Source: Planctomycetota bacterium
GTDB taxonomy: Bacteria; Planctomycetota; UBA8108; SXIK01
Reading direction: 5' to 3'
Length of the DNA: 64,000 nucleotides
Assembly: GCA_965223845.1 (NCBI GenBank)
Contig: CBDCXR010000004.1
Span: 5,088,001 to 5,152,000 of the forward strand
A program made the position numbers and the translations under genes. Position 1 is the first letter of the stretch. Each line of letters starts with the position of its first letter. Positions 8,375 to 45,207 of this stretch are shown here, one piece after another. Under the pieces are notes generated by a model that worked only from the letters and a program-made list of their open reading frames with translations, searched no databases and was not told the origin of the DNA.

Positions 8375-8514
8375 TTTGTAAGTTGAGGGTCGGGGGGTGA
8401 AGGCGTGCTCCTTCAGTTCGCCGACCCGCGATGGCGCGGGATGCTATTCTTCCTTGTGAGCGCGCGGGAAGTCGCGGGGCTTCGACCGATAAGGGCGCTC
8501 GCGAGGAGGAAGAG

Positions 8515-8955: not shown

Positions 8956-9052
8956 CGTCCGCCAGGACAGGAGAGGCTCGCCCGAGGGGTGAGTCGAGCG
9001 GGAGATGCGGCGACCCGATTCGCCCGGTCGCGTGAGCTCCGTTCCGTCGGCC

Positions 9053-10556: not shown

Positions 10557-13500
10557 ATGGCTCTTCGCTCGCTCGCTTTCTCTCTGGCATTGCTTTGCAC
10601 GGTTCCGTGCGGAGCCCAGGGCGTGTTCATCCGAGGAGACTGCGACCAGAGCCAGCGCCTCAACATCACGGATCCGATCTTCACTCTCGAGTTTCTCTTC
10701 GCCGACGGCCGCGAGCCGGTGTGCTTCGACGCCTGCGATTCGAACGACTCGGAACGCGTCGACATCGCAGACCCGATCTATACGCTTCTCTATCTGTTCG
10801 CCGATGGAGCGGAGCCGCGTCCTCCGTTTCCCCACGAAGGTGCCGATCCGACGGCGGCGCCGCTACCGGAGGACGATATCGGCTGTTCGAACGGGCGCAC
10901 CCCCGCCGCCGAGGTGCGCATCTCTCCGCGAGAAGTGCGGTTCGAGCGCCTCGGCGACGCGCTCGCCCTTCGTGTCGTCTCCGTCGACGCAACGGGAATC
11001 CCCGCGGACGTCCACGACGCGCCGACCATCGTCTACGACGTCGCGGATCCATCGATCGCCGAGGTCGACGGTGCGGGAGTCGTCACGGCGACGGGAATCG
11101 GTCGAACGAGTCTCAGCGTGCGCTACGCCGGCGCCGTGCGCACCGTGCCGATCGTCGTCCCCGCCGGGGCGGACGGCGGACCGACGATCCGCGTGATCTC
11201 GCCGCTCGACGGCTCGATCGTCCGCTCGGATGCCGTGATCGTCTCGGGGCTGGTCGCACGCACAACCGCGGTCATGGTCAACGGCGACAGCCTCGAAGTC
11301 GACGATGATCGATTCAGCGGAGAGGTCGAGCTCACCCTCGGCGGGAATCTCCTCCGCGTCGTCGCGATGGGCGATCCCGGTCTCGAGGCGGCGGAGGAGA
11401 TCCGAGTCACTCGCGTCGCTCGCGACGCCGCGGACGTCGTCGGTCCCGACGGGCGGTTTCTCCCGGTCGTGCCGGAACCCTTCGTCTCGTCACCCGACAC
11501 GCGCGCCCCGACCGTTCTCGTGACCTCGCCAGAGCCGGGATCGACCGTCGCGAGCTCGATCGTCCACGTCGAGGGGACGGTCGACGAGAACGATGTCTTC
11601 GTAACCGTCGGCGGGGTCGCCGCGCTCGTCGCCGACCGCTCGTTTCGCGCGACCTTGTCGCTTCCCCCGGGAGAGTCGACTGTCCGCGTCATCGCGACGG
11701 ACGCGCTCGAGAACGTGGGCGAGTCCGAGTTTCGAGTCCGCGTCGAGGCGGCCGCGCCGCGACTCGCGATCGTTGATCCGCCCGACGCGCCGACGCTCGT
11801 CTTCGGAAGGCGAACGGCGCGGCTTCGCGGCACCGTCTCGCCTCCGGGTGCGACCGTCGTCGCGAACGGTCGCCGGGCCGAAGTCAACGGCTCGACGTGG
11901 CAGGTCGACGTCGCGTTTCGCGATGGCGTGCAGCGTCTCGTGCTCGCGGCGCAGAGCTTCGGAGCGGCGGGCGCACCCGTTCGGTCGCAGCTCGTCCGCT
12001 CGGTCGTCGTCGACGAATCGCCGCCGCTCGTCGAACTCGCTTTTCCTCCGGACGGGGAGTTCATCGGAGGCGCGGCGTTCGAAACCGACGCCTCGACGCT
12101 CCTCTGGACCGGCCGCATCGAGGACGCGGGCGGCGCTCCGCGACCCTTCGTCGGCACGCTCGCCATCGACATCGACGGTGTTGCCGCGACGGTCTCGCGC
12201 AACGCGTTCTCCGCGTCAGTCCCGGTTCCGCCCGGCGCGAATGACCTCGAGCTCGTCGCGCGCGACGCCCGCGGGAATGAACTCCGGCGACGGCTGAGCG
12301 TCGTCCGGCGCAGCTTCCCGCGCAGCTTCGAGCTACTCTCGCCCGCGGTGAGTGACTCTCCCCGCGGATCGAACGAATTCCTCCGCGTTCGCGTCACCGA
12401 AAGCGGACGCGTCGTTCCGAACGTCGAGGTGGTCTGGTCGATCCGATGGGGCGAATCGGCGTTCGAATCGCCCGGAACGGGAGTCCGGGAGCGGACAACG
12501 CGAACGTTCACGGACGCCTCGGGCGTCGCTGCCGTCGCGTGGAGCGCCGGAGAAGCAGCTGGGCTCCAAACCGTCGTCGTCCGCTCCCGCGACTGCGCGA
12601 CGCGGTCCTTCGTTCGAACCGTCGCTCACGGCGACGCGACGCTTCTCGTCACCCGCCGCGACGGACCGTTCGTCGTCTCTACGGACGAAGGATCGCGATC
12701 GATTCCGGTTCGCCTCTTCGACCTGGCGGGGAACGAGATCCCGGATGAAGACATCACCACCGAAGTCATCGCCGGAGGAGCGAGCCTCGGCGGCGCACAG
12801 ATCGCGCGCGACCGTACGAACGCACACGGCATCGTCTCCGTCATCGTCACCGTGCCCCCGGACGATGACAGCGAGAGCCTGCTCCGACTCTCTCACCGTG
12901 GCGGCGCCGTGCTCGAGCTAACGGTCGAGGGACGCAAACCGGGAGCGGCCGCCGACACCGACGTCGTCGGCACGATCGCGTATGAAGACGGCGCGCCGAT
13001 TGCCGGAGCGCGCATCACTCTCGCGGGCTGGGAGAGCACGCCGGGGCTCATCGCGGCCACCGACGCGTTCGGTCGGTTTCGCATCGGCGGTGCGCCAAGC
13101 GGGTGCGGAGTGATCCAGATCACTTCGGAGCTCGGCACCGCCTCGCGACCGATCGAGACCTTGACCGGTCGCCGCCTCGAGCTCGGGCGCATCTCGCTTC
13201 CCCAGCCAGAGCTCGTCGACGCGAGGCGCCGCTCCCTCTCGGCGACACAGGTCGAAACGAATCCGAATGGGGCTCGCGTCGTTCTACCCGCGCTTCCGGG
13301 AGCGCAGCTTCACCTCACTCCCCTCGATCTGATCACATCGCACGGGGAGTTCACTCTCGCGGCGCCGCACCTTCACGTCGCTCCCGCTTCGGCGCCGGAC
13401 GGCACGCATCCCATCGGACTCGTCGGGGTCCTGCCCGAAGACGGACGATTCGCGCGCGCGCCGGCGATCGCCCTGCCAGCGATCGGGTCCGCGGGCGACC

Positions 13501-16500
13501 AACGCTTCACTCTTTACGAGTTTCGCGCTGCGGCCGGCGGCTTCGTCGATCTCGGTACGACGGTCGTCGAAGCGGGAACAAAGCGCATCGACGTTCCTCG
13601 CCATCTTGCGCCTCGGTCGGGCGGCTACTTTTTCGCGGCACCATCTCGGCGGCCCCCTTCCGGCGACACCGTGGTCGGGGGACAGATCGCTTTCGTCGGC
13701 CCGGAGGACGGTCAGGTTCCGCAGCGCGCGCGAAGCGAGGTGCTCGGGTTCCAAGTCTACGCGCACTCCGGCGAGCTCTACGTCGAGGAAGAGGACCTCG
13801 TCGTCCGTGGCCGTGGACTCTCGTTTCGCTTCGGGCGACGGTACGAGAGCCGCCACGAATTCGTGGGCTCGCTCGGGAACAACTGGGAGCACGACTACGA
13901 GGACCGCCGCATCTATCCGGGTCTCGGCGGGCGAAACATCGTCCGGGCGAACGGACGAGGGTCCTTCGACGAATACCTCTACGACGCGAACGCGGACGGG
14001 TACATCTCGCCGATTGGCGTCTTCTCTCACCTCTGGCGCGTGGCCGAGGGTTGGATCGAACGGGATCCGGAGGGGATCCGCTACGAGTACGAATCGTTCG
14101 ACGGCACCGCTCGGGCCGGTCGACTCGCGGCGATCGAAGACGCAGCCGGAAACCGGATGGAGTTCACCCGAAAGGAGAACGGTCGCATCGACTTCGTACG
14201 CGACAGCCTCGGAAGGCGAATCGTCTACGAGCACGACGAGCGCGGGCGAGTGCGAAGGGTGACCGATTTCACCGGCCGCCGCGTGGAGTTCGAATACGAT
14301 GCGCGCGGAGATCTCGTCGCCGTCACCGGTCCGGCCGTCGTTGGACTCCCGACGCCGAATCTCTTTCCGAACGGGAAACGGAGCGAGTACCGATACTCGA
14401 GCGGATTCGACGACGAACGCCTCAATCACAATCTCACTCAGATCATCGATCCGGCCGAAGTGATCGGTGCCGGACGCGCGCGCGTCACCATCGAGTACGG
14501 GGAGGGTCCGGACATCGAGACCTTCGACCGCGTGACGGCGCAGGAATGGAGCGTCCCCGACGGAAACGGAAGCGAGTCGAGTCGCGCCGAGTTCGACTAC
14601 GCTTCCCTCGTCGCCCCAGGAAGACCGGATCCGGCGAACGTAGAGGATCTCGAGGAAGCGCTCCTCGGCCCCGCCGCGCGCACGGACTTCACGAATGCCC
14701 GTGGAGTTCGCTCCCGCGTGATCTCGAGCGGCGCGGGCCTACCGCTCGTCGTTCGCGTGTACACGTCACCGGCTCTCGACGATCTCCGCGCGCGCGACCC
14801 GACGCGACGATTCCCCACGCCCGGAGTGGCCCCCCGGCACTACGAGACGAGACGCGAGTGGACCCGCGAAGGGCTTCTTCGCGCGATCACTCATCCCGGC
14901 GGCGATCGAACGCGATTCGAGCACGACGAGCGCGCGCCGCTCCGTCATGCGCAAGCGGCGATCACGCGCGTCGTCGAGGTCCCGCTCGCCGAGGCACCCG
15001 GCGAGGCGACTCCGGCCGTGACGACCTATCGGCGCGACCCCTTCTTCGGTCGCGTCCTCGAGCTCGTCCCACCGCGAGGAAACCGGCCCGGCGCGAACGC
15101 CGAAGACTTCGTCGAGAGGTCGTTCGTCGACTACCAAGAGGGCACGGAGATCGACGAGCTCGCCTCTCGCGTCGGGCGCGACGTCGACACAGTACGCGCG
15201 GCACTCCTCCACGCGGGGATCGAGCTCGGACTCGGTGATCTAAACGGTGACGGGGAAACGAGCCGGGCCTTCGGTCGCATCGTGCGCGTCGTTCGCCCCC
15301 CACTCGAGACCCCCGCCGGTGGAAGTGAGGAGAGCATCGCCACGAAAGCGTACAACCGCTTCGGCCAACTCGTCGAAGAGCGCGACGGGTCCGGTCGACT
15401 CGTCCGCTTTCGGTATCACTCGGAGACCGATCCGGAGGGAGATGGCACCGCGACGAACGGCGAGGGACTGGACCCCGAAACGGGCGGATTCCTCGCCGCG
15501 GAGATCCGCGTCCTCGACGAGGCGGCCGGCGACGAGATCGCACGATCGTTCCGCTACGACGAGTGGGGACATCCTCGCGAACTTACCGACGGACGCGGAA
15601 ACACGTTGATCCACACCTACAACGCGCTCGGCCAGCTCGTTCAGATCCAGTTCCCGTCGCCGCTTCGCTACCGCAGACAGGTCTTCTACGACGCCAGCGA
15701 TCGCGCGACGCTCGTTCGCCTGGAGAACTTCTCGATGACGGACGGCGGGATTCCATTCGCCGTGGCGGAGAATCGCTGGTTCGAGACGAGAATCGACTAC
15801 GACATTCTCCATCGCCCGATCCGAGTCGAACGCGAAATCGAAGAGGGAGAGCTCACCGGCGAGGCGCGCGCGGCGATCACGCGGATTCACTACACGCCGA
15901 CGGGCGAGATCGCGAGAATCGAACGCGACGGCGACGAGGCGAGCGAGGCGTGGCGCTACGACGAACGCGGCCTTCCGCTCTGGCACGCGCGCGGCCCTGG
16001 AACCGCAGACGAAGCCGCGATCACGAATCTTCGCGACGCCGCCGGGCAGCCGGTCGTTCGCATCGATGCGGCAGATTCGGACGGCGATGGCGAGCCGGAA
16101 CGGCAGAGATTCGTTCGCGACGGCTTCCATCGCTCGATCGCAGAGATCGACGCTCTCGGAGGCGCGAGGATCATCGCGCGCGACGTCGAAGGGCGCGCGC
16201 TCGACGAGGCCATCGTCGGGGATCCAGGGCGTGTGGGCGCGGCATCGGGCGGCGGGGACTCGCCGCTCGTTCTGCTCGCGCGCCGCTCATGGACCTACAA
16301 CGCGCGCGGCGGCGTCGAAACATCGCGTCGCGAGCTCTTCGGAGGCATCACGCCGGAGGGAGACCCCCTTCCGCCCGAGACGCTGATCACCCGCTACTGG
16401 TACGACGGCGCAGACCGTCTCATCGCCCGGCGAGATCCGCTCGGTTTGCTCACCGAGCGAGAGTACGACGGCGCCGGACGCCTCGAAAGGATCCGCGAAC

Positions 16501-18878: not shown

Positions 18879-19129
18879 TCCCGGTCGGACGCTGAGCGAA
18901 GCCCCGCCGACTCCGGCTCCGGGGTCCGTCCCCACAGGGAAATACCGGCTTTGTTCGGGTCCTCGGCATCGCACACCGTCGCTCGCTCTCGCCGGATCGC
19001 TGTTCCCGGGGAGACTCCGGCCCGTCCCGCCTGGAGAGAAGACCGGGTGGATCGTATCCTGGAGCGCGCCGGGCGCCGTCGCGCGCGGACCACTGGGTAG
19101 GTGATTTGAGTCGCACGGAGGAAGGGTCC

Positions 19130-21031: not shown

Positions 21032-21140
21032 GATCGCGAGTTCTCACCAGGTTCGCGTGCATCGCCCCGCTCACCGAATCTGGTGAGGACTCCCAACTGG
21101 AGGTCGTGCGAAGGATCTCCAAGGGCAGCGGAGTCGCTTC

Positions 21141-29666: not shown

Positions 29667-29783
29667 GAGGCATCTCGCGCCAATTCTGCTCCGAGCCGGG
29701 CGACCCGAAGGACATCGAAGACCCTGAGCGCGCAGTCGACAATCGCCCCTCCAGCTCGCCGCCCGCGAAACCGGCGCTCGGAA

Positions 29784-33974: not shown

Positions 33975-34058
33975 CGCGCGTCGTTACGGTGACTAACCCG
34001 GGAAACCAATCCTGAGAGAATACTCAAGGCCCCCACGAGCAGCCGTGAGACCGGCAGG

Positions 34059-37000
34059 CTACGGACAAGCATCGTACTCGCATTCAGCGAGGCGGTCATT
34101 CGTCGGATCCGGCCCGCACTCGAACGGCCCCGGCGCGGTAGGTGCCAGCCCATTCGCGAAGAGGTAGTTGAGTGTCGCGAGAGCATCGGAGACGTCAACG
34201 GAGCCGTCATCGTTCGCGTCGGCAGCATCGAGACAGCGCGGCATTCGACCGGTGGCAAAGAGCCAATTGAGCGTCTGCACGGGATCCGCGATGTTGACGA
34301 GACCATCGCCATTGGAATCCGCACGACGGAAACGCCCGCCGACGATCACTTCGACGACGAACGTACACAGAGCACTGTTGCCGGCACCGTCGACCGCAAG
34401 GACGGAGACGCGAGTCTCCCCGGGGGCGAACACCGAACCCGACGGAGGATCCGCCTGCACGTCGACGACGCCGCTGGGATCGGAAGCCACGAGGTCGAAC
34501 TCCACGACGGCCTGGTCCTCACCGAGGGCCTCGATCACCAGTCGATCGGGACACTCGAGTTTCGGCGGCTCGAGGTCGGGGGACACGGCGATGCTACCCG
34601 AGGTGCGCTGCGGCGTGCTGCTTTGCGTGGTGTCGCCCAACTGGACGGCGACCACCGACTCCACTTCCGGGTCGCCCAGGCCATCGACGATCTTGAGCTC
34701 GACCTCCCGCGGTTCGGCGCCCGTCACGGGATCCGGGGTCTCGGTTGACGCGACCTCCAACTCGAGGATTCGGAGCGGTTCCGTCGCATCGAGCGGCGCT
34801 CCGGGAGTCAACACGATCCCGACGACCCACTGACCGGCACCGAGCGCGTCGTCGTCATCGGCGCTGCGCACGAAAAAGCTGTCGACGGCTTCGGGGGCGA
34901 CATCCGGTCCCGGACGAATGGAGCGTATCTCGAGCAAGCTCGAATCGGCGAGCTCGAGGCCCAACTGCACGGCTCCGAGCGGCGCGTCAGACTCTGCCGA
35001 GACGTACGCCTTGAAGAAAGATCCGCTCGAGCGATCGACGACGCCGCTAGAGCCACTGAGACTCGTCGACGGCGGACAGTCGCTCCGAAGCACAAACGCC
35101 GCGGGGTCGGGACGCGGATCATTCGCGCAAGGCAAATCGACGTCGCGCAGGTAAAGCGGATCGCGATTTCGCCCTGGGATGAGGAGGCGCAAGTTACCGG
35201 CGAAGAGATCGAAGTGCGTGAGCTCGTAGGCGTCTCGAAATGGCTCACAGTGACTGAACTCGCCGCCCGCGGTCGACGGAGCGGCGAGACCCGAAAGGTC
35301 GAAGTCGAGAAAGAGCTCCCACGAAAAGTCCATTGGAAGAGAGAGACCGGGAATCTGCGAAATCGCACGCGCCGTCGACAAGCGCGCGCGATCGAGACGG
35401 ATACGCACCTCGCCCAAGAGCGAGTCGCGGGCACGAGCGTCCAGATCGTGGATGAAGACGTCGAACTCATCGAGACCGCTCGTAGGATCCGTGTGCGTAG
35501 CGCCGCGCTCAAAGGTGATCGTTCCGACGAAATCCTTCGTAAAGACGCCGACGCCCGGGATCTCGAGATCTTCGCAGATCGTGATCGCAGCGGTTTCCCT
35601 CGGCGCCCGGATATCGATGTTCCAAAGCTCCGGCAGCGGCGCGAACGGCTCGAGAACACCGTCGCGAAAGAGACCGATACTCGACGAAAACACTCCGTCC
35701 GGCGTCTCCCCCGATAGCGCGACGCGGATGCTCTCGCCGGTGAGCGCAGTGGACGTCGGCTCGAGGACGAGGCGCACGAGCTCGAGATCCACGCCGGGCT
35801 CGATCGCGCTGCCGGGTTGCAGCGAGAGCTGAACGACGGCGTAGTCCAGCCCGCTCACGAGCTCGAGTGAACGAACTGCGTCGGCCGGCAAGTCGGCCCC
35901 TGGCTCGACGCCGCGGATGGCGAAGCGGTCGTCATCAAAATCGAAAACGATCGTCGAGTCAGCGATGGGCGACGGCGAGTCGACATGAACCGATATCGGA
36001 TAGGGTTCGCGCAGACGCTCGGGGTCGATCACCGCTTCCGGGATTCGGATCACGGGCTCGAGCATGCAAACTTCGAGTGCTTCGATGCGCGCGGTCAAAT
36101 AGACCCTCGTGCCCTCGACCAACGCGCTGCTCGCCCAACTGAGCGAAGCGGATTCGAATTCCGAGATCGACCAGCGGGTCGGAAGACTCGGAAACGCAGG
36201 CCGCACGCGAGGAACGAGAAGAAGATAACCATCGTCTTCATGCGGAGGGGTCCATGAATCTTCCGTGAACGAACGCACCACATAGTGCTTCACCTCGGTG
36301 GAAGATTCGCTGGGAGAGGCCAGAAGGTTGCCCCTCGTCGATTCGAACACGCGATCGCCCGTGTCGAGCTCAAAGTCGTTGAGAAAGCGGAAATTCGTGA
36401 ACCCTGGATGCGACGGTTCCGGCTGCAGATCGTACGAGAACCGGCCGGTGATCGGTTGACCGATCTTCGGGGCCGCGCCTACGGGATGGACTGCGGTCAC
36501 GATCGCTCGGAAGCGGACGCAGGCAGTCGCCGGCGCGCCGCAATAGGCGCTCGGCTGTACGAGGACGTCCACTCCGTCGCCCTCGAAAAACGAGTGACCG
36601 GTTGATGAAGCGGACTCGTACGAAAACCGCTGAGACGCCGCGTGAATCGGATAGATCGCCGGCGGCAGACAGAGCGATTGCCAGCCCACGAAGACGGGAG
36701 CTCCGTCGCCGAGACTCCATCGCGTGTCTTCCGGTAGAACGGTGACGACTCGTGGCTCCGTCACGAGCTCGAGTCGTCGATACCCTCCGTGGCCGAGCGC
36801 CGGATCGGCGACCAAGACGAATCCGCTCGGAGACACGGCGTACTCGAGGTGCGGACCGACGTTCGTCAGCGCGAGAGTGTAGCGAGACGGGGCGAGTCGT
36901 GTGCTCGCGTTACCGCGAAAGATCGAGGCGGGTACACCGTCGGCTCCAGATCCCCAACGTCCGTGGTAGCCACCGACATCGAACGACACCGGGTGAGTGA

Positions 37001-38030
37001 CGAGCGAGAAACTCGACGTCCCACCGCTCGCGAGGCTCGAGTCGTCGACGCTGACAAGGCCCGACGGCGAGACCGTGTACGACACGTGGCGGAGATCAAC
37101 CCCCGCAAGCCCGAAGTTGTAGGTGGCGGGCGCGAGCTGGCTCGTTGCGTTGCCCATGAAGATCGACGCCGCGACACCGTCGGCTCCAGTGCCCCAACGG
37201 CCGGGGTATCCGGAGACGTCGAAGCTCACTTCCAGCGTCTCGAGAGTGAACGATCGTTCGCCACCTTGGGCGAGAGCGGAATCCGACGTCGACACCACTC
37301 CGCTAGGCGCGAGTGTGTACCGCACATGGAAGAGGTCGACGCCCGGGAGGCCGAACTGATACGTCGCCGGAGCGAGATGATGAGAATCGTTTCCCAACGA
37401 TATGCTGGCCGCGACACCGTCCGCACCGTTCCTCCATCGACCGGGGTAACCGCTCACGTCGAAGTCGACCTCCAGAGTGACGAGCGAGAGCATGCGATCG
37501 CCGCCCGTCGCCAGAGTCGGATCCGACGAGCTCACGGCGCCACCGGGTTCCACGGTGTACTCCACGTGGCGGAGGTCGACTCCCGAAAGACCGAGCGTGT
37601 AGGTCGCCGCGGCCAGGACGACGCTCGCGTCGCCGGAGTGCAGCGAAGGCGCGTTCTGGTCGTTCCCGGAACGCCAACGGCCCGCGTAGCCGTTCACGCG
37701 GACATCGACCGTCCACGTCAGAAGCTCGAGACGCCCTGTGCCTCCGCTGGCACGAAGGGGATCGTCGGAGGCGACGGTTCCGTCCGCGGCGACGTTGAAG
37801 CCGACCAGCTGATTGTCGACTCCGACGAGCCCGAGATGGTGGTGACCCGGCGCAAGGTCGAGCGTCCGGTCTCCTTCGTAGGCTGGAATCCCGTCGACGA
37901 GCCAGCGGCCGGTGTATCCGCCGATGTCGATCTCGACCTCGACCGCTCCGAGTGAGCTCGGCAGCAGCAGGAGAACCGTCCAGATCGGTCGGTACCGCGC
38001 GTTCGGGTGTCGCTGAGTGTCTCGTTCCAT
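34059..38030 (-). CDS. Secreted protein: five ~80-aa GYxGRW repeats, two cohesin-like domains, HYR-like domain, C-terminal dockerin
   Basis: Signal peptide; repeats at about 36760-37945; cohesin-like beta-sandwiches at about 35610-36060 and 34590-35040; HYR-like DLEPPKLECP..PSGSVFAPGETRV..DGAGNSALCTFVV; FRRADSNGDG dockerin. Confidence 0.8.
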   Translation of the reverse strand: MERDTQRHPNARYRPIWTVLLLLPSSLGAVEVEIDIGGYTGRWLVDGIPAYEGDRTLDLAPGHHHLGLVGVDNQLVGFNVAADGTVASDDPLRASGGTGRLELLTWTVDVRVNGYAGRWRSGNDQNAPSLHSGDASVVLAAATYTLGLSGVDLRHVEYTVEPGGAVSSSDPTLATGGDRMLSLVTLEVDFDVSGYPGRWRNGADGVAASISLGNDSHHLAPATYQFGLPGVDLFHVRYTLAPSGVVSTSDSALAQGGERSFTLETLEVSFDVSGYPGRWGTGADGVAASIFMGNATSQLAPATYNFGLAGVDLRHVSYTVSPSGLVSVDDSSLASGGTSSFSLVTHPVSFDVGGYHGRWGSGADGVPASIFRGNASTRLAPSRYTLALTNVGPHLEYAVSPSGFVLVADPALGHGGYRRLELVTEPRVVTVLPEDTRWSLGDGAPVFVGWQSLCLPPAIYPIHAASQRFSYESASSTGHSFFEGDGVDVLVQPSAYCGAPATACVRFRAIVTAVHPVGAAPKIGQPITGRFSYDLQPEPSHPGFTNFRFLNDFELDTGDRVFESTRGNLLASPSESSTEVKHYVVRSFTEDSWTPPHEDDGYLLLVPRVRPAFPSLPTRWSISEFESASLSWASSALVEGTRVYLTARIEALEVCMLEPVIRIPEAVIDPERLREPYPISVHVDSPSPIADSTIVFDFDDDRFAIRGVEPGADLPADAVRSLELVSGLDYAVVQLSLQPGSAIEPGVDLELVRLVLEPTSTALTGESIRVALSGETPDGVFSSSIGLFRDGVLEPFAPLPELWNIDIRAPRETAAITICEDLEIPGVGVFTKDFVGTITFERGATHTDPTSGLDEFDVFIHDLDARARDSLLGEVRIRLDRARLSTARAISQIPGLSLPMDFSWELFLDFDLSGLAAPSTAGGEFSHCEPFRDAYELTHFDLFAGNLRLLIPGRNRDPLYLRDVDLPCANDPRPDPAAFVLRSDCPPSTSLSGSSGVVDRSSGSFFKAYVSAESDAPLGAVQLGLELADSSLLEIRSIRPGPDVAPEAVDSFFVRSADDDDALGAGQWVVGIVLTPGAPLDATEPLRILELEVASTETPDPVTGAEPREVELKIVDGLGDPEVESVVAVQLGDTTQSSTPQRTSGSIAVSPDLEPPKLECPDRLVIEALGEDQAVVEFDLVASDPSGVVDVQADPPSGSVFAPGETRVSVLAVDGAGNSALCTFVVEVIVGGRFRRADSNGDGLVNIADPVQTLNWLFATGRMPRCLDAADANDDGSVDVSDALATLNYLFANGLAPTAPGPFECGPDPTNDRLAECEYDACP

Positions 38031-38072
38031 CCTCGCGCCTCCGCTTCGGGGTCTGTGTCCTCTCGATACGAG

Positions 38073-38104
38073 TCATCTGCGAGCACACCCCCGGCGCGGG
38101 ACAG
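38073..38104 (-). promoter_or_regulatory. Candidate ECF-sigma promoter CTGTCCCGCG-N13-CGCAGATGA
   Basis: Ends about 43 bp upstream of ATG 38030; both boxes recur exactly upstream of the 45207 gene. Confidence 0.55.
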
Positions 38105-38144
38105 AGAATCGAGCGGCCGGGGACGGCCCTTCCCCGGACGGGTG

Positions 38145-38768
38145 TCAGGCGTCGTCGCCATCCTCGATGAGCGCGCTGAGCCGCCGCAACGCGCGGAGGT
38201 AGCGCTTCCGCGCAGTGTCCTCCTCGAGCTCGAGCACCTGCGCAGCTTCCACCGACGTCAGCCCCTCGTAGTGGCGCAGGGCCAGAATCTCCCGATCGAG
38301 GGGCTTCATTCGGTTAATGGCATCCTCGAGTCGGAGCTTGGACTCAGCGCGCGCCGCGGCGTTGCTCGGCGACGTGAAGTGCCCCACGAGTCGTGCCGCC
38401 AGGACAACCGAGCTCGCGTCCGGGATTCCCGAGCGAAAGATCGAAACTTCTCGCGCGGCGTCGCGATGCGCACCGAAGTGGCGGCGGTGTTCCTGATGAA
38501 GACGTTGAACGGCGAGAAACCGAAGCCAGAGAAAAAGGGAGGAGAACGGCTTAGACCGATGGAACTCCTCCAGTCGCCGGCTGGCCTCCAAGAACGTGTC
38601 CTGCAGGATGTCCTCCGCGTCGATGCGACCCGCGACGCGAGGATGCAGCCGCAGCTCGAGCATCTGCTCGAGCCGCGGACGCTCAAGCTCGAGGACGCGT
38701 GCCAGCTCACTGACGTCCGCGACCTCGAACTCGGGTTTGGAGTTCGATTCGTTCTCGCCTCGATTCAT
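38145..38768 (-). CDS. ECF sigma-70 factor, planctomycete-type
   Basis: RLHPRVAGRIDAEDILQDTFLEA (region 2), LWLR, TSPS linker, DREILALRHYEGLTSVEAAQVL..ARKRYLRALRRL (region 4 HTH). Confidence 0.92.
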   Translation of the reverse strand: MNRGENESNSKPEFEVADVSELARVLELERPRLEQMLELRLHPRVAGRIDAEDILQDTFLEASRRLEEFHRSKPFSSLFLWLRFLAVQRLHQEHRRHFGAHRDAAREVSIFRSGIPDASSVVLAARLVGHFTSPSNAAARAESKLRLEDAINRMKPLDREILALRHYEGLTSVEAAQVLELEEDTARKRYLRALRRLSALIEDGDDA

Positions 38769-38838
38769 TCAACCCCTCGATCCGCGCCCCTTCCTATCGT
38801 CGCGCCTCGCGATCTTACCGCAGCTTGTGCCGAGAAGC

Positions 38839-41800
38839 TCACGGACAGGCCTGCGTCACACACTCCGCCAGTCCGCTCGGAGCGGGATCGCGACCGCAGT
38901 CGTCCGGCCCCGGCGCCGGCGGAGCACTACCATCAGCGAAGAGATAGTTCAGAATCTGCACCGCATCGCTGATGTTGACGCTGTGGTCGTCGTTCGAATC
39001 CGCCGCGTCGGGGCAGGGAGGCGGCAGGCCGTCGGCAAAGAGATAGTTGAGGATCTGAACGGCGTCGCTGATGTTCACGCTACGATCGTCGTTGGCGTCA
39101 CCGCGGCGAAACTCGACGCCGGCAGGCTCGACACGAACGACGAACTCGCAGGCAGACGAATTGCCGGCGGTGTCGCGTGCGGTCACGCGCACGACGGTTT
39201 CGCCGACCGGGAAACCCGCCCCGGATTCGTGACTGGAATCCATCTCGACGTCGCCGCAGTCGTCGATTGCAGTCACTTCGAACTCGACGGGAGTGAGCTC
39301 GCCTCTCGGCAGTTCGTCGACGACGATCTCGCCGGGACAAGAGATCTCGGGTGGCGTACCGTCGGCGAGAACGACCAAGTCGCCACAGGAAAACTCGGGC
39401 TCAATCCCGATGGAGTTGCCGTCGCGCTGAACCGTCACCGTGAGATCGATCGGCGGCGAGCCGAGTCCGCCGACGGGACAGAACCGAACCCGATCACCGG
39501 GCGTAGCCATCGAGCTTGGCCGTACACGAATCGTGAGCGCGCGCACCGCCTCCGTCGCGTCGAAAGTCACTCCGGCGTTGAGAACGAGGCCCACGATGGC
39601 CTGATGATCGTCGAGCTGTGCGGATGTTCCGTCGAGCACGAAGAGCGACTGCACGCTGTCGGGATCGAGATCCGGTCCCGGTGAGAACTCGATCGATTCG
39701 ATGAGCTCCGGACGATCCCACTCGAGACCGAGTTGAAAAGCTGAGACGGGCTCGTCGGCACGCAGGAGCAGGTGCATCGGGCTCTCGAAGCACGGCTGGA
39801 CACCCGTCTCCGCGGCGAAATCTAAGCGAGAGCCGTTCGTCGTAGATACGGGAGGAAGAGGGTCGAGATTCCGAAGCACATAGCGATCTCCCGGACGAAC
39901 TCCACTCGCGCGGAGCACCCAGATGCCCGGAGTCATCGCGTCCGTCTCGAGGCGCCATACGACTTCGGAGCCGTCGCACTCGTCGTCTGGCGTGCCACCG
40001 GCGACCTTGCGTTTGAACCCCGCCGCTCGTCGACCCGGCACGGCTGTCGCGACGACCGTGTGCGTATCATCGAGCAGGTCGAGGCGAAAACCCGTGAGCG
40101 AGCTCGGCGTCACGACTTCGAACCCGGCCGTCGCCGGCGCGCCTTCGGGCCAGCGCATCGCGTGAAGGAGTTGCGGACCGGGATTGCACGTCGCGAGCGG
40201 GCAGTGCCCGTCGAAGAAGAACTCGTGCTCGATGCGCCCATGTGGGTTCCAAATCTCGGAGATGATCTGATCTGTGGCGTTACTCGGCGGATCAGCAGGA
40301 TCGCCGCCGCAACCGGGCAATTGCTGCACGTAGCAACAGATCCAGTCATCGATGGCCTGCGACGTCCGGCGCACGTCATCGACGTTCACCGGGACGGTAT
40401 AGACAACGCGAAGATCGTAAATATCGGCATGTCGCCCGTCGCACGGCAGCGTCAGCGTGAAGCGGTCGAGTCCCAGACCTCGCGGACAGGGGATTCGGTG
40501 CGTGGTGTTGGTCGCGAGTACGCGGCCACTCGCATCGCGCAAGGTACTCGGCACCGCACCGCTCGTGATGAGGAGATTAGACGCCGCGACGACGTTGCCG
40601 AGACCGCAAGTGGACGCCAAGTCGAGGCAGTCCTCGACTTCCGTGGGGAGCGTAATACTGAAGACGTCGACGTCGTCCGGACAGTGAAAATTGAGCCTCC
40701 TTACGACCAGCTCGTTGACGATGAACTCATTTCCCTCAGTACGAGTGAACTGCGCCGCGCTCAGTTCGGCGGCTTCGGAGTTCCTGTCGTTCGGTTCGAA
40801 ACCATCGGATGCCCTCTGACCGAGAGCTCGGATCGTGCCGCTGAGGTGATACACCGTGTCGTCCCCGGCGACTTCGAACGGAAGCGGGTCGCGGAGGAAG
40901 ATCGGCACGGACCTCCACGTCGAGAAGCCACTCACTCCTCGCGTACTCTCACTCGTGTCGCGGGAGCGCACGCCGAATCGGGACCGAGCGAGGCCACTAC
41001 CCGCGTGAGATTCCGTCGTGACTTGAACTTCGTACGGCATGCATTCGCGAGCGGAGGGAGCGGCCGCAATGACGAAGTGGTCCTCTTCGTTGAGCCCGCT
41101 CGCTGTGTAGTCGTGTAGACCGAGATCGCGCTCCTCGAAGACCTGGAAATCGGAGACGGGAAACTCGATCGCCGTCCCCGGCGTGTCGTTCGTCTCCCGG
41201 CGCTGCGCTTCGGGAATACAGAAGCTGGCTGCGAAGTCGCTTTCGGGATCGCGGTACTCGTCGCGCGCCAAGACCGGCGAGAGAACGCTCGGGCTCGTTC
41301 GCGGCGAGAGTGCGCGAACGAGAGCCAGATCCGCCCGCAAAAAGCGTCGCACGCGGGGATCGCTGCGCGGCGGCGGCGAACGCAGCGCCGTTGATCGCAG
41401 AATGTCCCGGATTTGCCGGTGACTCAGCGATGGATTCGCGGCGCGCATCAAAGCGACCACACCGCTCGCGATGGCGCAGGCGCTACTCGTACCGCCGACA
41501 AATTTCTCGGTAAAGGGCCCGCAGGAGGGACCATCGCCTTGGGGAGCTGCAACTCGGGCCGAGTCGATGACCCAAATGTCTACCGAAGAGCCGAACAAGT
41601 GGAGATTGTCGTAGCTGGCATCGGTCGCCCCTACGGCGATGCAGTTCGGGAGAATCGCCGGAATCAGGTGAAAGCGCTCGATGGTGGCTTCGCCGAAGGG
41701 TTCCGTCGCGTTTCCGGAGGACGCGAGACAAACGACGCCTCGACGCACGGCGAACTCGAGCGCGTCCTCCATGGAGTCGCGGGCTTCGGAGAGAATCGCC

Positions 41801-44800
41801 ACGAGCGTGAAGCAGAGGTCGACCGCCAAGGGTCCGACGGGCGGAACCGGAACTCCGGCGGTCGCGGAGATGATCGGAAGGGCGGTCTGTAACGCGGCCC
41901 CCACCACAGGGCACGCGAGGGCCGTCCACGGATTCGAGAAGTTGAGTCCCGCGATCTTCGTCGGAATGCCGAGGCTCATGTTGATGACCTCGCAGCCATC
42001 GATCGTCGCCTTGCGGATGGCTTTGTCGAGATCGTGGAGGAACCCGAGACCGCCGATGTTGTAGAGCCGAAGCGCCGCGACCTGGCCACCGACACCGGCG
42101 ACGCCCACTCCGTTGTTGTGCTTCGAGCCGAGGATGCTCGCGATGCGGGTGCCGTGAAACGGACCGCCGAATCCAAAGGTCTCACCGAGACCGAACGGAT
42201 CCGCCACACCGCGCACGAAGTCGAACCCACCGAGAATCTCGATGTCGCCCGAGAGCTCGGGGCAAAAGTTCGTATCGATCACACCGACGGCGACGTGCTC
42301 CGTGGCGCGCTCTGCTACGGGAATGTCGAGATCGAGAAGCGACGTCATCAACCAGGCGGCACCGATCCCTTGGATACAGTCGCGCGCGTAGACGTCCCGA
42401 AACGCGTCGCCGGATGTCGGGATCGTTTCTCCCGACGCGTTGTCGGGTCCGTTGAACGGGTCGTTCGTGATCGGCCGATCGAACGATTCAAGGACTAGGT
42501 TCGGAGATACTTGCGATCCACGCAGCGTTTCGTCGGCGATGACCGCGAGGAGCGCGTGGAGTTTCGGGTCGGACACCGCGAGCTTGTCGTCGAGCCCGAG
42601 CAGCGTGAGCATGTCCTCGAGACCGGCCCCATCGACCGCGCCGGGATCGATTCGATAGAGAAGCGCTGCGCCGCCGGCGTCTTCGCTGCCGGGAAAGGAC
42701 CCGTCGTCGACGAGCGTCGCGTTCCAGCGGCTCTCGAAGCGCGCGCGGTCGACTTCGTCGCGCGGAGCGAAGATGACTTGGTCGAGGCCGAGGTGCATCT
42801 CGATGCCACTACCGGATAGAACACCGAGCGGACGCGGCGGCTCACCGGGTGCGCGACCGGGCACTTCGGGTACGGGCGGGGTCAACTCCGTGTCGACAGG
42901 CAGCAACCCCAGCGGTTCGCTGGCCCCGGTCACGCGTGCGATCGCGGCTGCCGTCGACTTGACCGACGGTTCGGATCGCGGATCGAACCAGTAGGCCACG
43001 AGACGGTCACCCGGCTCGACAGAGAGCTGCTGGTCTTCCGGGCCCGTCGACTCGAGCGTCAACACGAGGGATCCGGGATCGGGAGTGAACACCGAGCCTC
43101 GGTCGACGAGCTCGACGCGCTCGACGTCCTCGGTCAAGGTGCTCGCGACCCAAACCTCCTGCACAGCGTCGAGACCCGGACCGCCCGCATAGAGATAGAA
43201 ACACGGGTCTACAGCTCCGGCCGGATCGTAGCGATAGCGATCGAAGTGGAGCGTGGGCGGCGGCGCCGGCGGCGGTTGCGGCTGGGGCTCTGCCTTCGTG
43301 TAGTCGGCGCCTTCGATGATGTCCACCGCGAACGTCTCACCGAGCTCCTCGATCTGTTCCTCGGTCGCGAGACCGATCCCAAGGACGTCGATCGTGTCGT
43401 GAATCCAAAGCTCGGAGAAAAGCGAGTCGAGGAGCGCGTTGTGATGCGAGAGCACGCCCTGCGCGCGAACCACCTTCAGGGGCGCGCTCGTCGGTACCTC
43501 CGGTAGTCGTTCGAGCACGAAATCGATCTCACCGCGGTCTTGTCCGTCGGCCCCCGAGTCGTGATCGATGACGAGAAAGAGCGGCTTGTCATCTAGGCGC
43601 GCGATGAGAGTTTCACCTCGACCACGTCCCTGCGCGTCCGTCGCGATGAGGCAAGATTCTGCCGAGCAGTTTTCCAGAAGTGCCAGCGAGAGATTTGCCT
43701 CGTCTTCTCGCGGTCGCGCGAAGATTCGATAGTCACCGGGCTCGGCAACGCTCAGAAGGCAAACGAGGTCCGCCCCGGCCTGCTGCCCGGGCAGACAGGA
43801 GAGCCCGTCGAACTCGTTCGAGGCGCCGGCAAACGAGATTACGGAAGTCCCCTCGTCGAGCATGATCGGACTCGAGCAGGAACCATCTGCGCCGTCAGGC
43901 GCCATCGCGTGGGAAACCTCCAGCCACGTCTCTGGCCTGAACGGATTCGAACCAGGCGGGAGAACGGCGGCCAGGGGATCGTCCGTTCCCGTACAGACAC
44001 CGCTCCAACCCGTGTGGCGGAGGGCGACATCGAAGCCACCGGAATCGAGAGCGTCGAAGAGCTCGCGGGCGAAACGAATCTCGACGCTGAGACGACCATC
44101 GTTCCCGAGGTCGAGCCCGGCTTCGAGGCGGTCGGGGCCCGCACATTCCTCGCCGGCACACTCGATCCACTCGTCCCCTTCGAGACGCATCGCCCGAACG
44201 CCCCCGCGTGCGAGGTCGACTCGCGCACCGACGGGCTCGGGTGCCGGCAGCACGGGATCGTCGCCCGCACGAGCGCGCAGATAAACGTCGAGCGCGTGGG
44301 GTTCTTCGCCACCTGGAGGTCGGGGAAGGCCCTCCACGGCGACGAAGTGCTCGCCGTCTCGATGTCCGATTCGGATCCGCGCCTCCATCCGGCTTTCGAA
44401 ACTCGCGTAGCTCAAGAACCCAACTGGGGAGCCGGGGTACTCGACGACCGGATTGAGGATGCCATCGATCGTCGGCGTCGTGAGCAGCTCGGGAATCCAC
44501 GCCGAGGCGGGCAGCACTCCGAACGAACTCGGTTCACCGAGCACAGCTCCAACGGGCGTCGTCCCGTCGATTCCGCGAATGAGCTCTCGTCCTCCTCCGT
44601 GAGGCAGAACCGCCACGAGCCCGGCGGCGCCGCGAACTTCCCGCTGGTAGTCGGCGCGAATCTCCTCGGCGCTGCGCGCGTAGTTCCAGATGCGGACCTC
44701 GTCGAGCAGACCCTCAAAGGGATGCCCGATGGCGAACCAATCCCCGGCACTCTCTCTCGACGCATCGATCCACACCGCGTCGGCGAGCTCGCCGTTGACG

Positions 44801-45207
44801 AAGACGAAGGCCGGCGACGGTGAGTCGTCCGTGCTGCGCTCGACCGTGACCGCGAGGTGGCACCACGTGCCAGCGGGGACGACAACATCCGTCTCGACGG
44901 GCGCGTCGAAGCGGTAGGCCAGTGTTAACTTGTTCGGGTCACCAATCCGCGGCTCCTCGAACCAAATCCCCAACCCGCCGATCGCCGTCATCGGATAGCC
45001 GTTGTTGGTGTTGTCACGACGAATCCAGAGCTCGAGCGTCGTCGCATCGGGAGGCAGATAGCTCGGGTGCGCGTAGACGACGCCTTGACCCGATGTGTAG
45101 TGCGTACTTCGAATCGTCGTCGCCCGAGTGATTCCTTGGGCGTGAACTTGCGCGCAAACGGCGAGAGTGAAAGAGAAGGCGAGAGCGTGGAATACGGACG
45201 AGCGCAT
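38839..45207 (-). CDS. Secreted multidomain S8 (subtilisin-like) peptidase with LamG, PPC-like, cohesin-like, HYR-like and C-terminal dockerin domains
   Basis: SD GGGGGG before ATG 45207; signal peptide; LamG (TLELWI..WCHLAVT..FEGLLDEVRIWN); triad VAVGVIDT (D about 42275), FHGTRIA (H about 42155), GGTSSA (S about 41486), plus INMSLG and ASSGN; cohesin-like about 39370-39830; HYR-like; FRRGDAND dockerin. Confidence 0.87.
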   Translation of the reverse strand: MRSSVFHALAFSFTLAVCAQVHAQGITRATTIRSTHYTSGQGVVYAHPSYLPPDATTLELWIRRDNTNNGYPMTAIGGLGIWFEEPRIGDPNKLTLAYRFDAPVETDVVVPAGTWCHLAVTVERSTDDSPSPAFVFVNGELADAVWIDASRESAGDWFAIGHPFEGLLDEVRIWNYARSAEEIRADYQREVRGAAGLVAVLPHGGGRELIRGIDGTTPVGAVLGEPSSFGVLPASAWIPELLTTPTIDGILNPVVEYPGSPVGFLSYASFESRMEARIRIGHRDGEHFVAVEGLPRPPGGEEPHALDVYLRARAGDDPVLPAPEPVGARVDLARGGVRAMRLEGDEWIECAGEECAGPDRLEAGLDLGNDGRLSVEIRFARELFDALDSGGFDVALRHTGWSGVCTGTDDPLAAVLPPGSNPFRPETWLEVSHAMAPDGADGSCSSPIMLDEGTSVISFAGASNEFDGLSCLPGQQAGADLVCLLSVAEPGDYRIFARPREDEANLSLALLENCSAESCLIATDAQGRGRGETLIARLDDKPLFLVIDHDSGADGQDRGEIDFVLERLPEVPTSAPLKVVRAQGVLSHHNALLDSLFSELWIHDTIDVLGIGLATEEQIEELGETFAVDIIEGADYTKAEPQPQPPPAPPPTLHFDRYRYDPAGAVDPCFYLYAGGPGLDAVQEVWVASTLTEDVERVELVDRGSVFTPDPGSLVLTLESTGPEDQQLSVEPGDRLVAYWFDPRSEPSVKSTAAAIARVTGASEPLGLLPVDTELTPPVPEVPGRAPGEPPRPLGVLSGSGIEMHLGLDQVIFAPRDEVDRARFESRWNATLVDDGSFPGSEDAGGAALLYRIDPGAVDGAGLEDMLTLLGLDDKLAVSDPKLHALLAVIADETLRGSQVSPNLVLESFDRPITNDPFNGPDNASGETIPTSGDAFRDVYARDCIQGIGAAWLMTSLLDLDIPVAERATEHVAVGVIDTNFCPELSGDIEILGGFDFVRGVADPFGLGETFGFGGPFHGTRIASILGSKHNNGVGVAGVGGQVAALRLYNIGGLGFLHDLDKAIRKATIDGCEVINMSLGIPTKIAGLNFSNPWTALACPVVGAALQTALPIISATAGVPVPPVGPLAVDLCFTLVAILSEARDSMEDALEFAVRRGVVCLASSGNATEPFGEATIERFHLIPAILPNCIAVGATDASYDNLHLFGSSVDIWVIDSARVAAPQGDGPSCGPFTEKFVGGTSSACAIASGVVALMRAANPSLSHRQIRDILRSTALRSPPPRSDPRVRRFLRADLALVRALSPRTSPSVLSPVLARDEYRDPESDFAASFCIPEAQRRETNDTPGTAIEFPVSDFQVFEERDLGLHDYTASGLNEEDHFVIAAAPSARECMPYEVQVTTESHAGSGLARSRFGVRSRDTSESTRGVSGFSTWRSVPIFLRDPLPFEVAGDDTVYHLSGTIRALGQRASDGFEPNDRNSEAAELSAAQFTRTEGNEFIVNELVVRRLNFHCPDDVDVFSITLPTEVEDCLDLASTCGLGNVVAASNLLITSGAVPSTLRDASGRVLATNTTHRIPCPRGLGLDRFTLTLPCDGRHADIYDLRVVYTVPVNVDDVRRTSQAIDDWICCYVQQLPGCGGDPADPPSNATDQIISEIWNPHGRIEHEFFFDGHCPLATCNPGPQLLHAMRWPEGAPATAGFEVVTPSSLTGFRLDLLDDTHTVVATAVPGRRAAGFKRKVAGGTPDDECDGSEVVWRLETDAMTPGIWVLRASGVRPGDRYVLRNLDPLPPVSTTNGSRLDFAAETGVQPCFESPMHLLLRADEPVSAFQLGLEWDRPELIESIEFSPGPDLDPDSVQSLFVLDGTSAQLDDHQAIVGLVLNAGVTFDATEAVRALTIRVRPSSMATPGDRVRFCPVGGLGSPPIDLTVTVQRDGNSIGIEPEFSCGDLVVLADGTPPEISCPGEIVVDELPRGELTPVEFEVTAIDDCGDVEMDSSHESGAGFPVGETVVRVTARDTAGNSSACEFVVRVEPAGVEFRRGDANDDRSVNISDAVQILNYLFADGLPPPCPDAADSNDDHSVNISDAVQILNYLFADGSAPPAPGPDDCGRDPAPSGLAECVTQACP

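Follow-up and report, generated by a model that had tools for sequence, protein, structure and literature searches.

Five secreted proteins encoded at positions 10557–45207 of the window (the whole stretch of 64,000 nucleotides that was analysed) carry one and the same module, which sequence comparison identifies as a dockerin in each case. Giant secreted proteins with a dockerin tag reach a comparable density in only one other stretch of the genome. The locus is probably a crowded section of a docking system that spans the whole genome, its genes being neighbours and not components of a dedicated complex. A first-pass annotation had proposed a non-cellulolytic cohesin–dockerin surface machine with these five proteins as a candidate. 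The dockerins, cohesins and non-cellulolytic cargo of that proposal stand, but one dedicated machine is not supported, and annotation of the locus as a stand-alone machine is unwarranted.

Cohesin–dockerin assembly is understood almost entirely from the cellulosomes of Firmicutes. Here, an order of Planctomycetota gives about a tenth of its coding bases (11% of bases in this genome) to dockerin-tagged non-cellulolytic proteins, with cargo that ranges from binders and CotH/LTD proteins to one RHS protein and every S8 protease of the genome. Provided that the pairs bind as proposed, they would constitute a general protein-display or matrix-building system with consequences for particle attachment and feeding in these bacteria, and would supply many docking pairs that are stabilised by disulfides and potentially orthogonal. 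The mesh considered below would, if real, provide surface display and toxin delivery through docking, as an alternative to the usual systems.

Architecture of the locus

The seven genes of the locus form two co-directional strings with gaps of 71–228 bp. The plus strand carries P0001 (10557–18878, 2773 aa), P0002 (19106–21031, 641 aa) and P0003 (21141–29666, 2841 aa). The minus strand carries P0006 (38839–45207, 2122 aa), an ECF-type sigma factor gene (38145–38768, 207 aa), P0005 (34059–38030, 1323 aa) and the kinase gene P0004 (29784–33974, 1396 aa), with the sigma factor gene placed between P0006 and P0005 and P0004 following P0005.

P0001 consists of a signal peptide, a dockerin, Ig-like domains (Glucodextran_B twice, CarboxypepD_reg), DUF6531, an RHS/YD-repeat shell and a tail of ~90 aa. 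The RHS/YD repeats are strong (Pfam, 176.9 bits; TIGR01643, 140.9 bits) and the RHS-associated core is weak (TIGR03696, 20.3 bits versus a cut-off of 32.5). The C-terminal tail that follows this core matched no toxin family. P0002 carries a signal peptide, two weak legume-lectin/LamG-like β-sandwiches (30.3 bits for the legume-lectin-like match versus a cut-off of 78.3) and a dockerin; its true start is probably an ATG a few codons inside the open reading frame. P0003 is built of a signal peptide, seven units of ~400 aa, each a β-propeller plus FN3 (seven matches, counting the unit itself), and a dockerin.

P0005 contains a signal peptide, ~90-aa repeats, a first cohesin, a linker domain, a second cohesin, a HYR domain (34347–34577, minus strand) and a dockerin. 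P0006 contains a signal peptide, a LamG domain (Laminin_G_3, 44659–45090, minus strand), a subtilase S8 domain (Peptidase_S8, 41386–42159, minus strand; Pfam, 67.8 bits), a cohesin, a HYR domain (39130–39363, minus strand) and a dockerin. Subtilase-type Asp, His and Ser motifs, which we take to be the catalytic ones, are visible in the P0006 translation. All four S8 proteases of the genome are dockerin-tagged.

The remaining two genes encode the regulators that the first-pass annotation had seen embedded in the cluster, and both are borne out. P0004 is a Ser/Thr protein kinase that has WD40/TPR-like repeats and a transmembrane segment but no dockerin. The sigma factor scores above the cut-off for sigma70-ECF; the best-matching family is TIGR02984, a subfamily specific to Planctomycetaceae, where its 149 bits stay below the cut-off of 183.75. 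Sigma–kinase pairs are frequent in this genome region, and a second kinase-WD40 gene starts at 60186.

The shared module is a dockerin

The dockerin is N-terminal in P0001 (10617–10865, plus strand), where it directly follows the signal peptide and lacks the Cys-rich tail, and C-terminal in P0002 (20747–21025, plus strand), P0003 (29397–29660, plus strand), P0005 (34062–34340, minus strand) and P0006 (38842–39120, minus strand), an arrangement that the first reading of the sequence had described correctly. An alignment over ~92 columns confirms that all five proteins have one duplicated Ca-loop/helix module in common, with 19 invariant columns, 44–49% identity of the modules to the first of the five and an obvious internal duplication. 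A type I dockerin is ~60 aa long and consists of two tandem ~22-residue segments, in each of which a helix comes after an EF-hand-like Ca loop. The two segments that mark this family (PF00404) are found in all five modules and in the consensus of 318 modules from the genome; each module has two copies of the loop D-x-[ND]-x-[DS]...D with a helix behind it. The consensus additionally shows a conserved Cys before the second loop, a Pro/Cys-rich tail and three conserved Cys columns in all.

Profile searches with Pfam Dockerin_1 (gathering cut-off, 22.9 bits) gave a divided result. P0006 scores above the cut-off (26.9 bits), P0002 (22.3 bits) and P0005 (20.7 bits) fall just under it, P0003 reaches 13.6 bits with the isolated module only, and P0001 has no match. 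Searched against the PDB at E ≤ 1, the profile of the five modules returns 23 sequences, led by 4uyq_B (2.5e-5); apart from one pair named only 'serine protease', all are dockerin-bearing or dockerin-named chains. By these sequence comparisons, the module is a lineage-specific, cysteine-containing, type-I-like dockerin; it probably serves as a general docking tag.

Three divergent cohesins in P0005 and P0006

Cohesin (PF00963) is a β-sandwich of ~140 aa. Three domains at the locus, called cohesin-like by the first-pass annotation, are identified as divergent cohesins by modelling and sequence comparison. The domain of P0006 (39358–39810, minus strand) has a confident AF2 model (pLDDT 91.8), whose listed Foldseek matches in the PDB are nearly all cohesins, including the top ones (best E 1.7e-4, TM 0.57–0.68). 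The second domain of P0005 (34575–35033, minus strand) is 36% identical to it (phmmer E 2e-12). The first domain of P0005 (35586–36068, minus strand), a divergent domain that lacks relatives outside this protein, is less well supported. Among the listed matches of its model (pLDDT 69.4), those at E ≤ 0.001 are cohesins without exception; the model was folded with an alignment of cohesin-family sequences and is therefore biased towards the cohesin fold. The window domains are counted as having the cohesin topology, a jelly-roll β-sandwich of ~140 aa.

None of the three matches the Pfam Cohesin profile (PF00963) even at E ≤ 10, so they are tied to cohesins at the sequence level only via the genome's own cohesins. 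An hhalign comparison of the P0006 domain with those cohesins, seeded from Pfam Cohesin matches, gives a probability of 98.6% (E 9e-16), and an iterated HMM built from them finds the three domains with i-E values of 1.3e-7, 0.0018 and 0.0026, the last belonging to the first domain of P0005.

The cohesin subfamily of P0005 and P0006, with its cohesin–HYR–dockerin ending, is rare (26 of 1.84 billion representatives). A dockerin lies downstream in 18 of the 24 representatives from outside the window. Eight of these dockerin-bearing sequences were scanned; six contain HYR, and their N-terminal cargo is variable (VWA in three, LamG in one, TSP3 in one). Judged by sequence, cohesin–HYR–dockerin is thus a portable C-terminal cassette.

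A probable genome-wide docking system

The genome contains 329 matches to the module in 308 reading frames, of which 318 modules in ~300 frames are near full length. The module ends within 30 aa of the stop codon in 269 of the 318 and lies more than 100 aa before it in 47; among the latter are the N-terminal module of P0001 and internal modules interspersed alternately with cohesins. Cohesins number 68 in 45 frames, giving ~4.7 dockerins per cohesin. A dockerin is also carried by 43 of the 44 strong cohesin frames, in Coh-Doc, Coh-Coh-Doc and (Doc-Coh)n arrangements; the sole cohesin frame without one has instead an Arg-rich stretch behind a hydrophobic segment at its C-terminus.

A Pfam scan of a random 55 of the 294 dockerin frames outside the window shows what the system carries. 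The commonest families are CotH (10), LTD (10), FG-GAP (5), CHB_HEX_C_1 (5), Fn3_assoc (5) and Laminin_G_3 (3). Pfam Dockerin_1 at 1e-5 detects only 6 of these 55 carriers.

By count, the clustering of modules at the locus is modest, with five in 34.65 kb against a genome mean of ~1.4; at least five are present in 325 of 7835 sliding windows (4.1%), the maximum being 10. By coverage it is strong, since 85% of locus bases lie in dockerin-tagged frames versus 11% genome-wide. Coverage of at least 80% occurs in only 22 of 15670 windows of 35 kb, which fall into two regions, one of them the locus.

In a tree of all 318 dockerins, the five local ones are scattered and form no clade; they join only at the root. 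Only those of P0005 and P0006 (62% identity) are mutual nearest neighbours. The module is present in all 20 relatives of the same order that were searched, at 78 to at least 150 copies per genome. Of 40 further genomes drawn from across the phylum, just 2 have it at E ≤ 1e-10. Homologues of the cargo cores, in contrast to the module, are found in only one to three of the 20 relatives and always on different contigs, and none of the other cores adjoins the P0006 homologue at the three loci that were fetched. The five genes are not kept together in any relative examined, and conserved synteny is absent. In one relative (G005), a full-length P0006 orthologue is adjoined by a sigma-like frame of weak similarity (24.6% identity, E 7e-9).

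Possible assembly and alternative explanations

The module's identity, its census, its lineage distribution and the lack of synteny are the established part of the explanation. We infer cohesin–dockerin binding at the locus. Each protein would be exported through Sec, as the N-terminal signal-like sequences suggest, and its dockerin, presumably loaded with Ca, would plug into a cohesin. Because cohesin proteins almost always have a terminal dockerin themselves, such adaptors could chain into a protein mesh, either surface-bound or extracellular. The mesh would show binders (lectin/LamG, propellers, VWA, LTD, CotH), proteases and, at this locus, the RHS protein, and P0005 and P0006 may be cargo and adaptor at once by virtue of their portable C-terminal cassette.

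A dedicated, co-regulated surface machine, in which the sigma factor and kinase switch on the P0006, P0005, RHS, lectin and propeller genes and three cohesins assemble five dockerin proteins into a complex that binds and attacks particles or cells, would account for the dense co-directional strings around the two regulators, for the exceptional coverage, for the rare cohesin subfamily common to P0005 and P0006 and for P0001 being the only RHS protein of the genome with a dockerin. It is nevertheless improbable, given that the five dockerins are ungrouped among 318, that the cores are dispersed or missing in relatives and absent beside the three P0006 homologues, and that sigma–kinase pairs such as the one at the locus recur in this region. 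The stoichiometry is also against it: three cohesins face five dockerins, both cohesin proteins themselves have a dockerin at their end, and the window shows no anchor. With 318 copies genome-wide, the module is largely what the first-pass annotation had itself set against its machine, a generic tag on unrelated proteins. The preferred reading, a dense patch of a genome-wide system, leaves room for a locally co-regulated subset on account of the coverage, the co-directional strings, the sigma factor and kinase, the kinship of P0005 and P0006 and the sigma-like frame in G005.

The module could instead be mainly a sorting or anchoring tag, either a Ca-dependent, disulfide-locked C-terminal signal for an export or attachment system or a binder of envelope glycans, with the cohesin-like domains serving another role. 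Its usual position next to the stop codon, the excess of dockerins over cohesins and the three conserved Cys columns agree with this, and ~300 carriers per genome together with lineage restriction resemble known C-terminal sorting signals. Such a tag is an unlikely explanation for a module that is far from the stop in 47 cases, N-terminal in P0001 and alternating with cohesins elsewhere, and whose PDB profile search returns homology to dockerins only. Moreover, cohesins have expanded alongside the module, with fusions of the two in 43 of 44 frames, which is hard to explain unless they interact. Extending the genome-wide docking system to its limit, one Planctomycetota order would have the largest cohesin–dockerin interactome yet seen (~300 dockerins and ~70 cohesins per genome, 11% of bases in tagged frames), forming a head-to-tail extracellular mesh that displays adhesins, all four S8 proteases and, here, a dockerin-tethered RHS protein for contact-dependent attack. 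Head-to-tail polymerisation is possible, as almost every cohesin protein is dockerin-ended; the extension as a whole is speculative and unlikely.

Relation to known systems

Cellulosomes consist of dockerin-bearing glycoside hydrolases and a scaffoldin with a CBM and a cell anchor. Type I dockerin–cohesin pairs of cellulosomes (PF00404/PF00963; for example PDB 4uyq, 5lxv, 6kgc and 1ohz) have in common with the present system the duplicated Ca-loop-plus-helix dockerin and the β-sandwich cohesin. Adaptors with both modules are likewise known from the scaffoldins of Ruminococcus flavefaciens, whose cohesin is the top structural match. The present dockerin differs in its Pro/Cys-rich tail and in the Cys that precedes its second loop; further differences are the poor reach of Pfam Dockerin_1 (6 of 55 sampled carriers) and Cohesin (none of three window domains), ~300 carriers per genome, a planctomycete host and a window without an SLH or sortase-type anchor. 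A cellulosome was rejected as the identity of the system: the Pfam scan matched no glycoside-hydrolase family in the six window proteins, where the first-pass annotation had recognised none either, and no catalytic family of this kind is among the 25 listed of 33 families matched in the 55 sampled carriers. Peer et al. (2009) reportedly found cohesins and dockerins outside cellulolytic organisms, often on one protein and with protease or binding-domain cargo; to our knowledge, the scale, lineage restriction and Cys-tailed variant seen here were not part of that survey.

The 'planctosome' of Nemodlikiaceae is a closer parallel, and the first-pass annotation was apt in naming it. As modelled by Andrei et al. 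(2019, PMC6461901), this non-cellulolytic system has few parts: one LTD/P-domain anchor with a cohesin, one adaptor with dockerin, HYR and cohesin domains, and peptidase cargo of the M12B and M14 families. In domain content, that adaptor matches the cohesin–HYR–dockerin ending of P0005 and P0006, and LTD proteins are common among the dockerin carriers of this genome too (10 of 55). As far as the published passages go, the present system differs in its S8 peptidase, in the placement of the cassette at the end of large cargo proteins and in its ~300 dockerins; the window has neither an LTD/P-domain anchor with a cohesin nor an M12B or M14 peptidase. A marked increase of dockerins in some genomes of kelp-associated Planctomycetes MAGs was ascribed to gene duplication, and the dockerins were read as cellulosome-related CAZyme parts (Ji et al. 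2017, PMC5264255). The passages of that paper on these modules contain no cargo analysis or cohesin–dockerin tandem architecture.

P0001 could be a surface-held RHS protein, because its RHS/YD shell comes with a signal peptide and the window shows no PAAR/VgrG context. WapA is a Sec-exported, surface-held RHS/YD protein of this kind. Unlike WapA-like proteins, P0001 has a tail of only ~90 aa without a matched toxin family, no immunity gene is evident, and its tethering would be via the N-terminal dockerin. Among the three RHS proteins of the genome, P0001 is the sole dockerin carrier.

Gene organization of the locus

The locus consists of seven genes arranged in two convergent strings (10557–45207) with intergenic gaps of 71–228 bp inside each string. 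The forward string encodes P0001 (10557–18878, + strand, 2773 aa), P0002 (19106–21031, +, 641 aa) and P0003 (21141–29666, +, 2841 aa). The reverse string encodes, in transcription order, P0006 (38839–45207, − strand, 2122 aa), a sigma factor (38145–38768, −, 207 aa), P0005 (34059–38030, −, 1323 aa) and P0004 (29784–33974, −, 1396 aa). When the translations are read by eye, all five large non-kinase proteins display a signal-peptide-like hydrophobic stretch at the N-terminus. Four DNA sequencing runs, all of a single study, and no listed RNA run contain this stretch of DNA.

The domain content of these proteins was assigned with Pfam and NCBIfam profiles. P0001 is made up of Ig-like domains, DUF6531 and strong RHS/YD repeats with a weak match to the RHS core, followed by a C-terminal tail of ~90 aa to which neither collection assigns a family. 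P0002 carries two legume-lectin-like domains, both weak, and P0003 contains seven copies of a propeller-plus-FN3 unit (the first unit, used as a query, gives seven matches including itself). P0006 combines Laminin_G_3, Peptidase_S8, whose Asp, His and Ser motifs are seen in the sequence, and HYR; HYR is also found in P0005. The sigma factor is of the ECF type, with the best match to the Planctomycetaceae-specific subfamily TIGR02984 (149 bits, below the cut-off of 183.75). P0004 is a protein kinase with WD40 repeats. Another Ser/Thr kinase, whose WD40 array is very large, is located at 60186–63998 (+) and continues past the end of the window. Such genes seem to be frequent here, so the presence of a kinase inside the cluster is less significant.

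The flanks carry planctomycete-specific families, typical of Planctomycetota: PSCyt2/PSD1 paired with DUF1501 at 615–4737 (+), and DUF1552 paired with PSD2-5/PSCyt3, with a CBM60-like insert in this pair, at 51271–55148 (−). Directly upstream of P0006 are two large HEAT-repeat proteins (45586–51227, −), one of which carries DUF7133 together with a cytochrome c domain; no dockerin was found in either.

Dockerin identity of the shared module

The duplicated module that the first-pass annotation recognized in five proteins is indeed common to all of them. Its copies align over ~92 columns, 19 of which are invariant, with 44–49% identity to the first copy and a clear internal duplication. Judged from its sequence, this module is a dockerin, as had been proposed. 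Only the P0006 copy (26.9 bits) meets the Pfam Dockerin_1 cut-off, the P0002 (22.3) and P0005 (20.7) copies fall just under it, the P0003 module scores 13.6 when isolated, and P0001 has no match. Searched against the PDB, a profile of the five modules matches 23 sequences with E ≤ 1; except for one pair whose name is just “serine protease”, these are dockerins or dockerin-bearing enzymes (best match 4uyq_B, 2.5e-5). In the consensus of all genomic copies, an L-x-x-L-F helix follows each of two D-x-N-x-D-G...D loops. Cys is conserved in three columns: the first, which precedes the second loop, has it in 307 of 318 copies, and the other two belong to a Pro-rich tail. To our knowledge, canonical dockerins do not have these three cysteines.

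The cohesin domains of P0005 and P0006

The three cohesin-like domains, two in P0005 and one in P0006, are divergent cohesins. None of them matches Pfam Cohesin even at E ≤ 10, and their joint profile finds only 26 representatives in 1.84 billion proteins, P0005 and P0006 counted. The AlphaFold2 model of the P0006 domain, computed from a 22-sequence alignment, has a pLDDT of 91.8. Almost all of its PDB matches are cohesins, with TM-scores of up to 0.68 and the R. flavefaciens ScaC cohesin (5lxv, E 1.7e-4) as the best match; a PDB sequence search with the P0006 cohesin profile gave one chance-level match only. A family seeded from the genome's own Pfam Cohesin matches (4 of 16 above cut-off) and then iterated had, by round four, taken in the P0006 domain (i-E 1.3e-7) and both P0005 domains (about 0.002). 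Its alignment with the P0006 cohesin family by hhalign has a probability of 98.6% (E 9e-16). Domain 2 of P0005 shares 36% identity with the P0006 domain. Of the three, the case is weakest for domain 1. A search of 5.8 billion proteins gave no homologue of it, so its model (pLDDT 69.4) was built from an alignment of distant cohesins and is biased towards the cohesin fold. All matches to this model listed at E ≤ 0.001 are cohesins, and by language-model similarity the domain is closest to cohesin clusters (score 0.90). The cohesin assignment of the first-pass annotation is upheld, least firmly for this domain. A predicted complex of the P0006 cohesin, the P0001 dockerin and two Ca ions scored 0.24 against a mark of 0.32, which counts neither for nor against binding.

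Spread of the module in the genome and in the lineage

A genome-wide dockerin census, suggested in the first-pass annotation, was performed by running a five-module HMM over every stop-to-stop frame of 60 aa or more in the 7.93-Mb genome. It returned 329 matches in 308 frames, 318 of them near-full modules, or about one per 24.8 kb; because stop-to-stop frames were used in all censuses, protein counts are approximate. The module ends within 30 aa of the stop in 269 of the 318 cases; in 47 it is separated from the stop by over 100 aa and is either N-terminal, as in P0001, or alternates with cohesins. The genome's cohesin family comprises 68 domains in 45 frames, usually laid out as Coh-Doc, Coh-Coh-Doc or (Doc-Coh)n, and a dockerin is present in 43 of the 44 strong cohesin frames.

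The cargo was sampled by drawing 60 of the 294 non-window carriers at random, 55 of which were scanned against Pfam. Dockerin_1 at E ≤ 1e-5 detects only six of these 55, and standard annotation therefore badly undercounts this dockerin variant. The commonest cargo families are CotH (10), LTD (10), FG-GAP (5), CHB_HEX_C_1 (5), Fn3_assoc (5) and Laminin_G_3 (3). No glycoside hydrolase had been recognized in the first-pass annotation, and this is borne out both by the Pfam and NCBIfam scans of the proteins of the locus, where none was matched, and by the 55 carriers, where no glycoside-hydrolase catalytic family occurs among the best 25 of the 33 Pfam families matched. All four S8 peptidases in the genome carry the module (in one it is N-terminal, with a weak score), as does only one of the three RHS proteins.

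All 20 relatives searched, from the same family or order, carry the module, with between 78 and at least 150 matches per genome. In an even phylum sample of 40 other genomes, by contrast, E ≤ 1e-10 is reached in only two: a member of the same class with at least 127 matches and a second genome with a single match. The expansion is thus a feature of this lineage rather than of Planctomycetota at large. In a search of genome contigs, the P0006 dockerin was found at 18 loci, mostly labelled Planctomycetota MAGs and a few with other submitter labels; the same search gave no relative of the P0006 core.

A probable patch of a lineage-wide docking system

The first-pass annotation interpreted the five dockerin proteins and three cohesin-like domains as one dedicated surface machine. 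That reading is supported in part, namely for the dockerins and cohesins. A local specificity group of the five window dockerins was also considered and is ruled out by a tree of all 318 modules, on which their common ancestor coincides with the root. Ranked by identity, the other window modules stand 9th–217th of 317 for three of the five, and the one pair of mutual nearest neighbours among them is formed by the P0005 and P0006 dockerins (62% identity). Shared synteny, also raised at that stage, failed to appear among the 20 relatives, where homologues of the P0005 N-terminal part, the P0003 unit and the P0006 core occur in one, one and three genomes, respectively. No other window core lies near the P0006 homologue at any of the three loci examined. 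The sole relative with all three parts (G005) has them spread over four different contigs; its P0006 homologue is a full-length orthologue with cohesin and dockerin. Upstream of it lies a sigma-like frame of weak similarity.

By count, the locus is only mildly special, as at least five modules occur in 4.1% of 34.65-kb windows (maximum 10). By coverage it clearly stands out: dockerin-tagged frames account for 85% of its bases, compared with 11% over the genome, and it is one of only two regions of the genome at 80% or more. A chance cluster of five genes is rejected as the whole story because of this coverage statistic. The other such region, G000:C4:6639501-6681152 in the host genome, has three similar-sized frames of ~1500–1540 aa and one of 2925 aa.

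The locus is most economically read as a dense patch within a cohesin–dockerin docking system of the whole lineage, in which P0005 and P0006 would be cargo and adaptor simultaneously. We infer export, Ca binding, cohesin–dockerin binding, chaining and an anchoring site for its components. The genes around the sigma factor may form a locally co-regulated subset. That the module is a pure sorting tag is less likely, since it also occurs in internal and N-terminal positions and is fused to cohesins.

Relation to known systems and candidate scaffoldins

The locus belongs with the non-cellulosomal cohesin–dockerin systems, as a variant of them. Among non-window representatives of the P0005/P0006 cohesin subfamily, 18 of 24 have a dockerin ~95–180 aa downstream of the cohesin. 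HYR separates the two in six of the eight representatives scanned, and the N-terminal cargo of these eight varies (VWA in three, LamG in one, TSP3 in one), which makes the cohesin–HYR–dockerin cassette a portable C-terminal unit. The “adaptor” of the planctosome model (Andrei et al. 2019, PMC6461901) has the three kinds of domain found in this cassette. Dockerin expansion by duplication is described for kelp-associated Planctomycetes MAGs (Ji et al. 2017, PMC5264255). In the accessible literature on planctomycete dockerins and cohesins, to which the supplements of both works may add, we found no report of ~300 carriers per genome or of an RHS protein tagged with a dockerin, and no description of the Coh-Doc tandem rule or the Cys-tailed dockerin variant.

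Elsewhere in the host genome, an array of seven adjoining frames of ~490–700 aa (G000:C4:1046648-1064341) combines, in every frame, one to three cohesins with a C-terminal dockerin and looks like a scaffoldin/adaptor gene cluster. Of the 45 cohesin frames, a single one (G000:C4:3659749-3661626, −) has no dockerin. Its N-terminus is signal-like, it contains one cohesin and PKD-like repeats, and at its C-terminal end a hydrophobic segment precedes an Arg-rich stretch. As a lead only, these last two features make it a candidate anchor, or cell-anchored scaffoldin. Beside the P0006 homologue of one relative (locus L076, G002:C232), a frame at 7174–12267 (+) has four dockerin-profile matches, of which three are internal and one is very short, and is another multi-dockerin protein.
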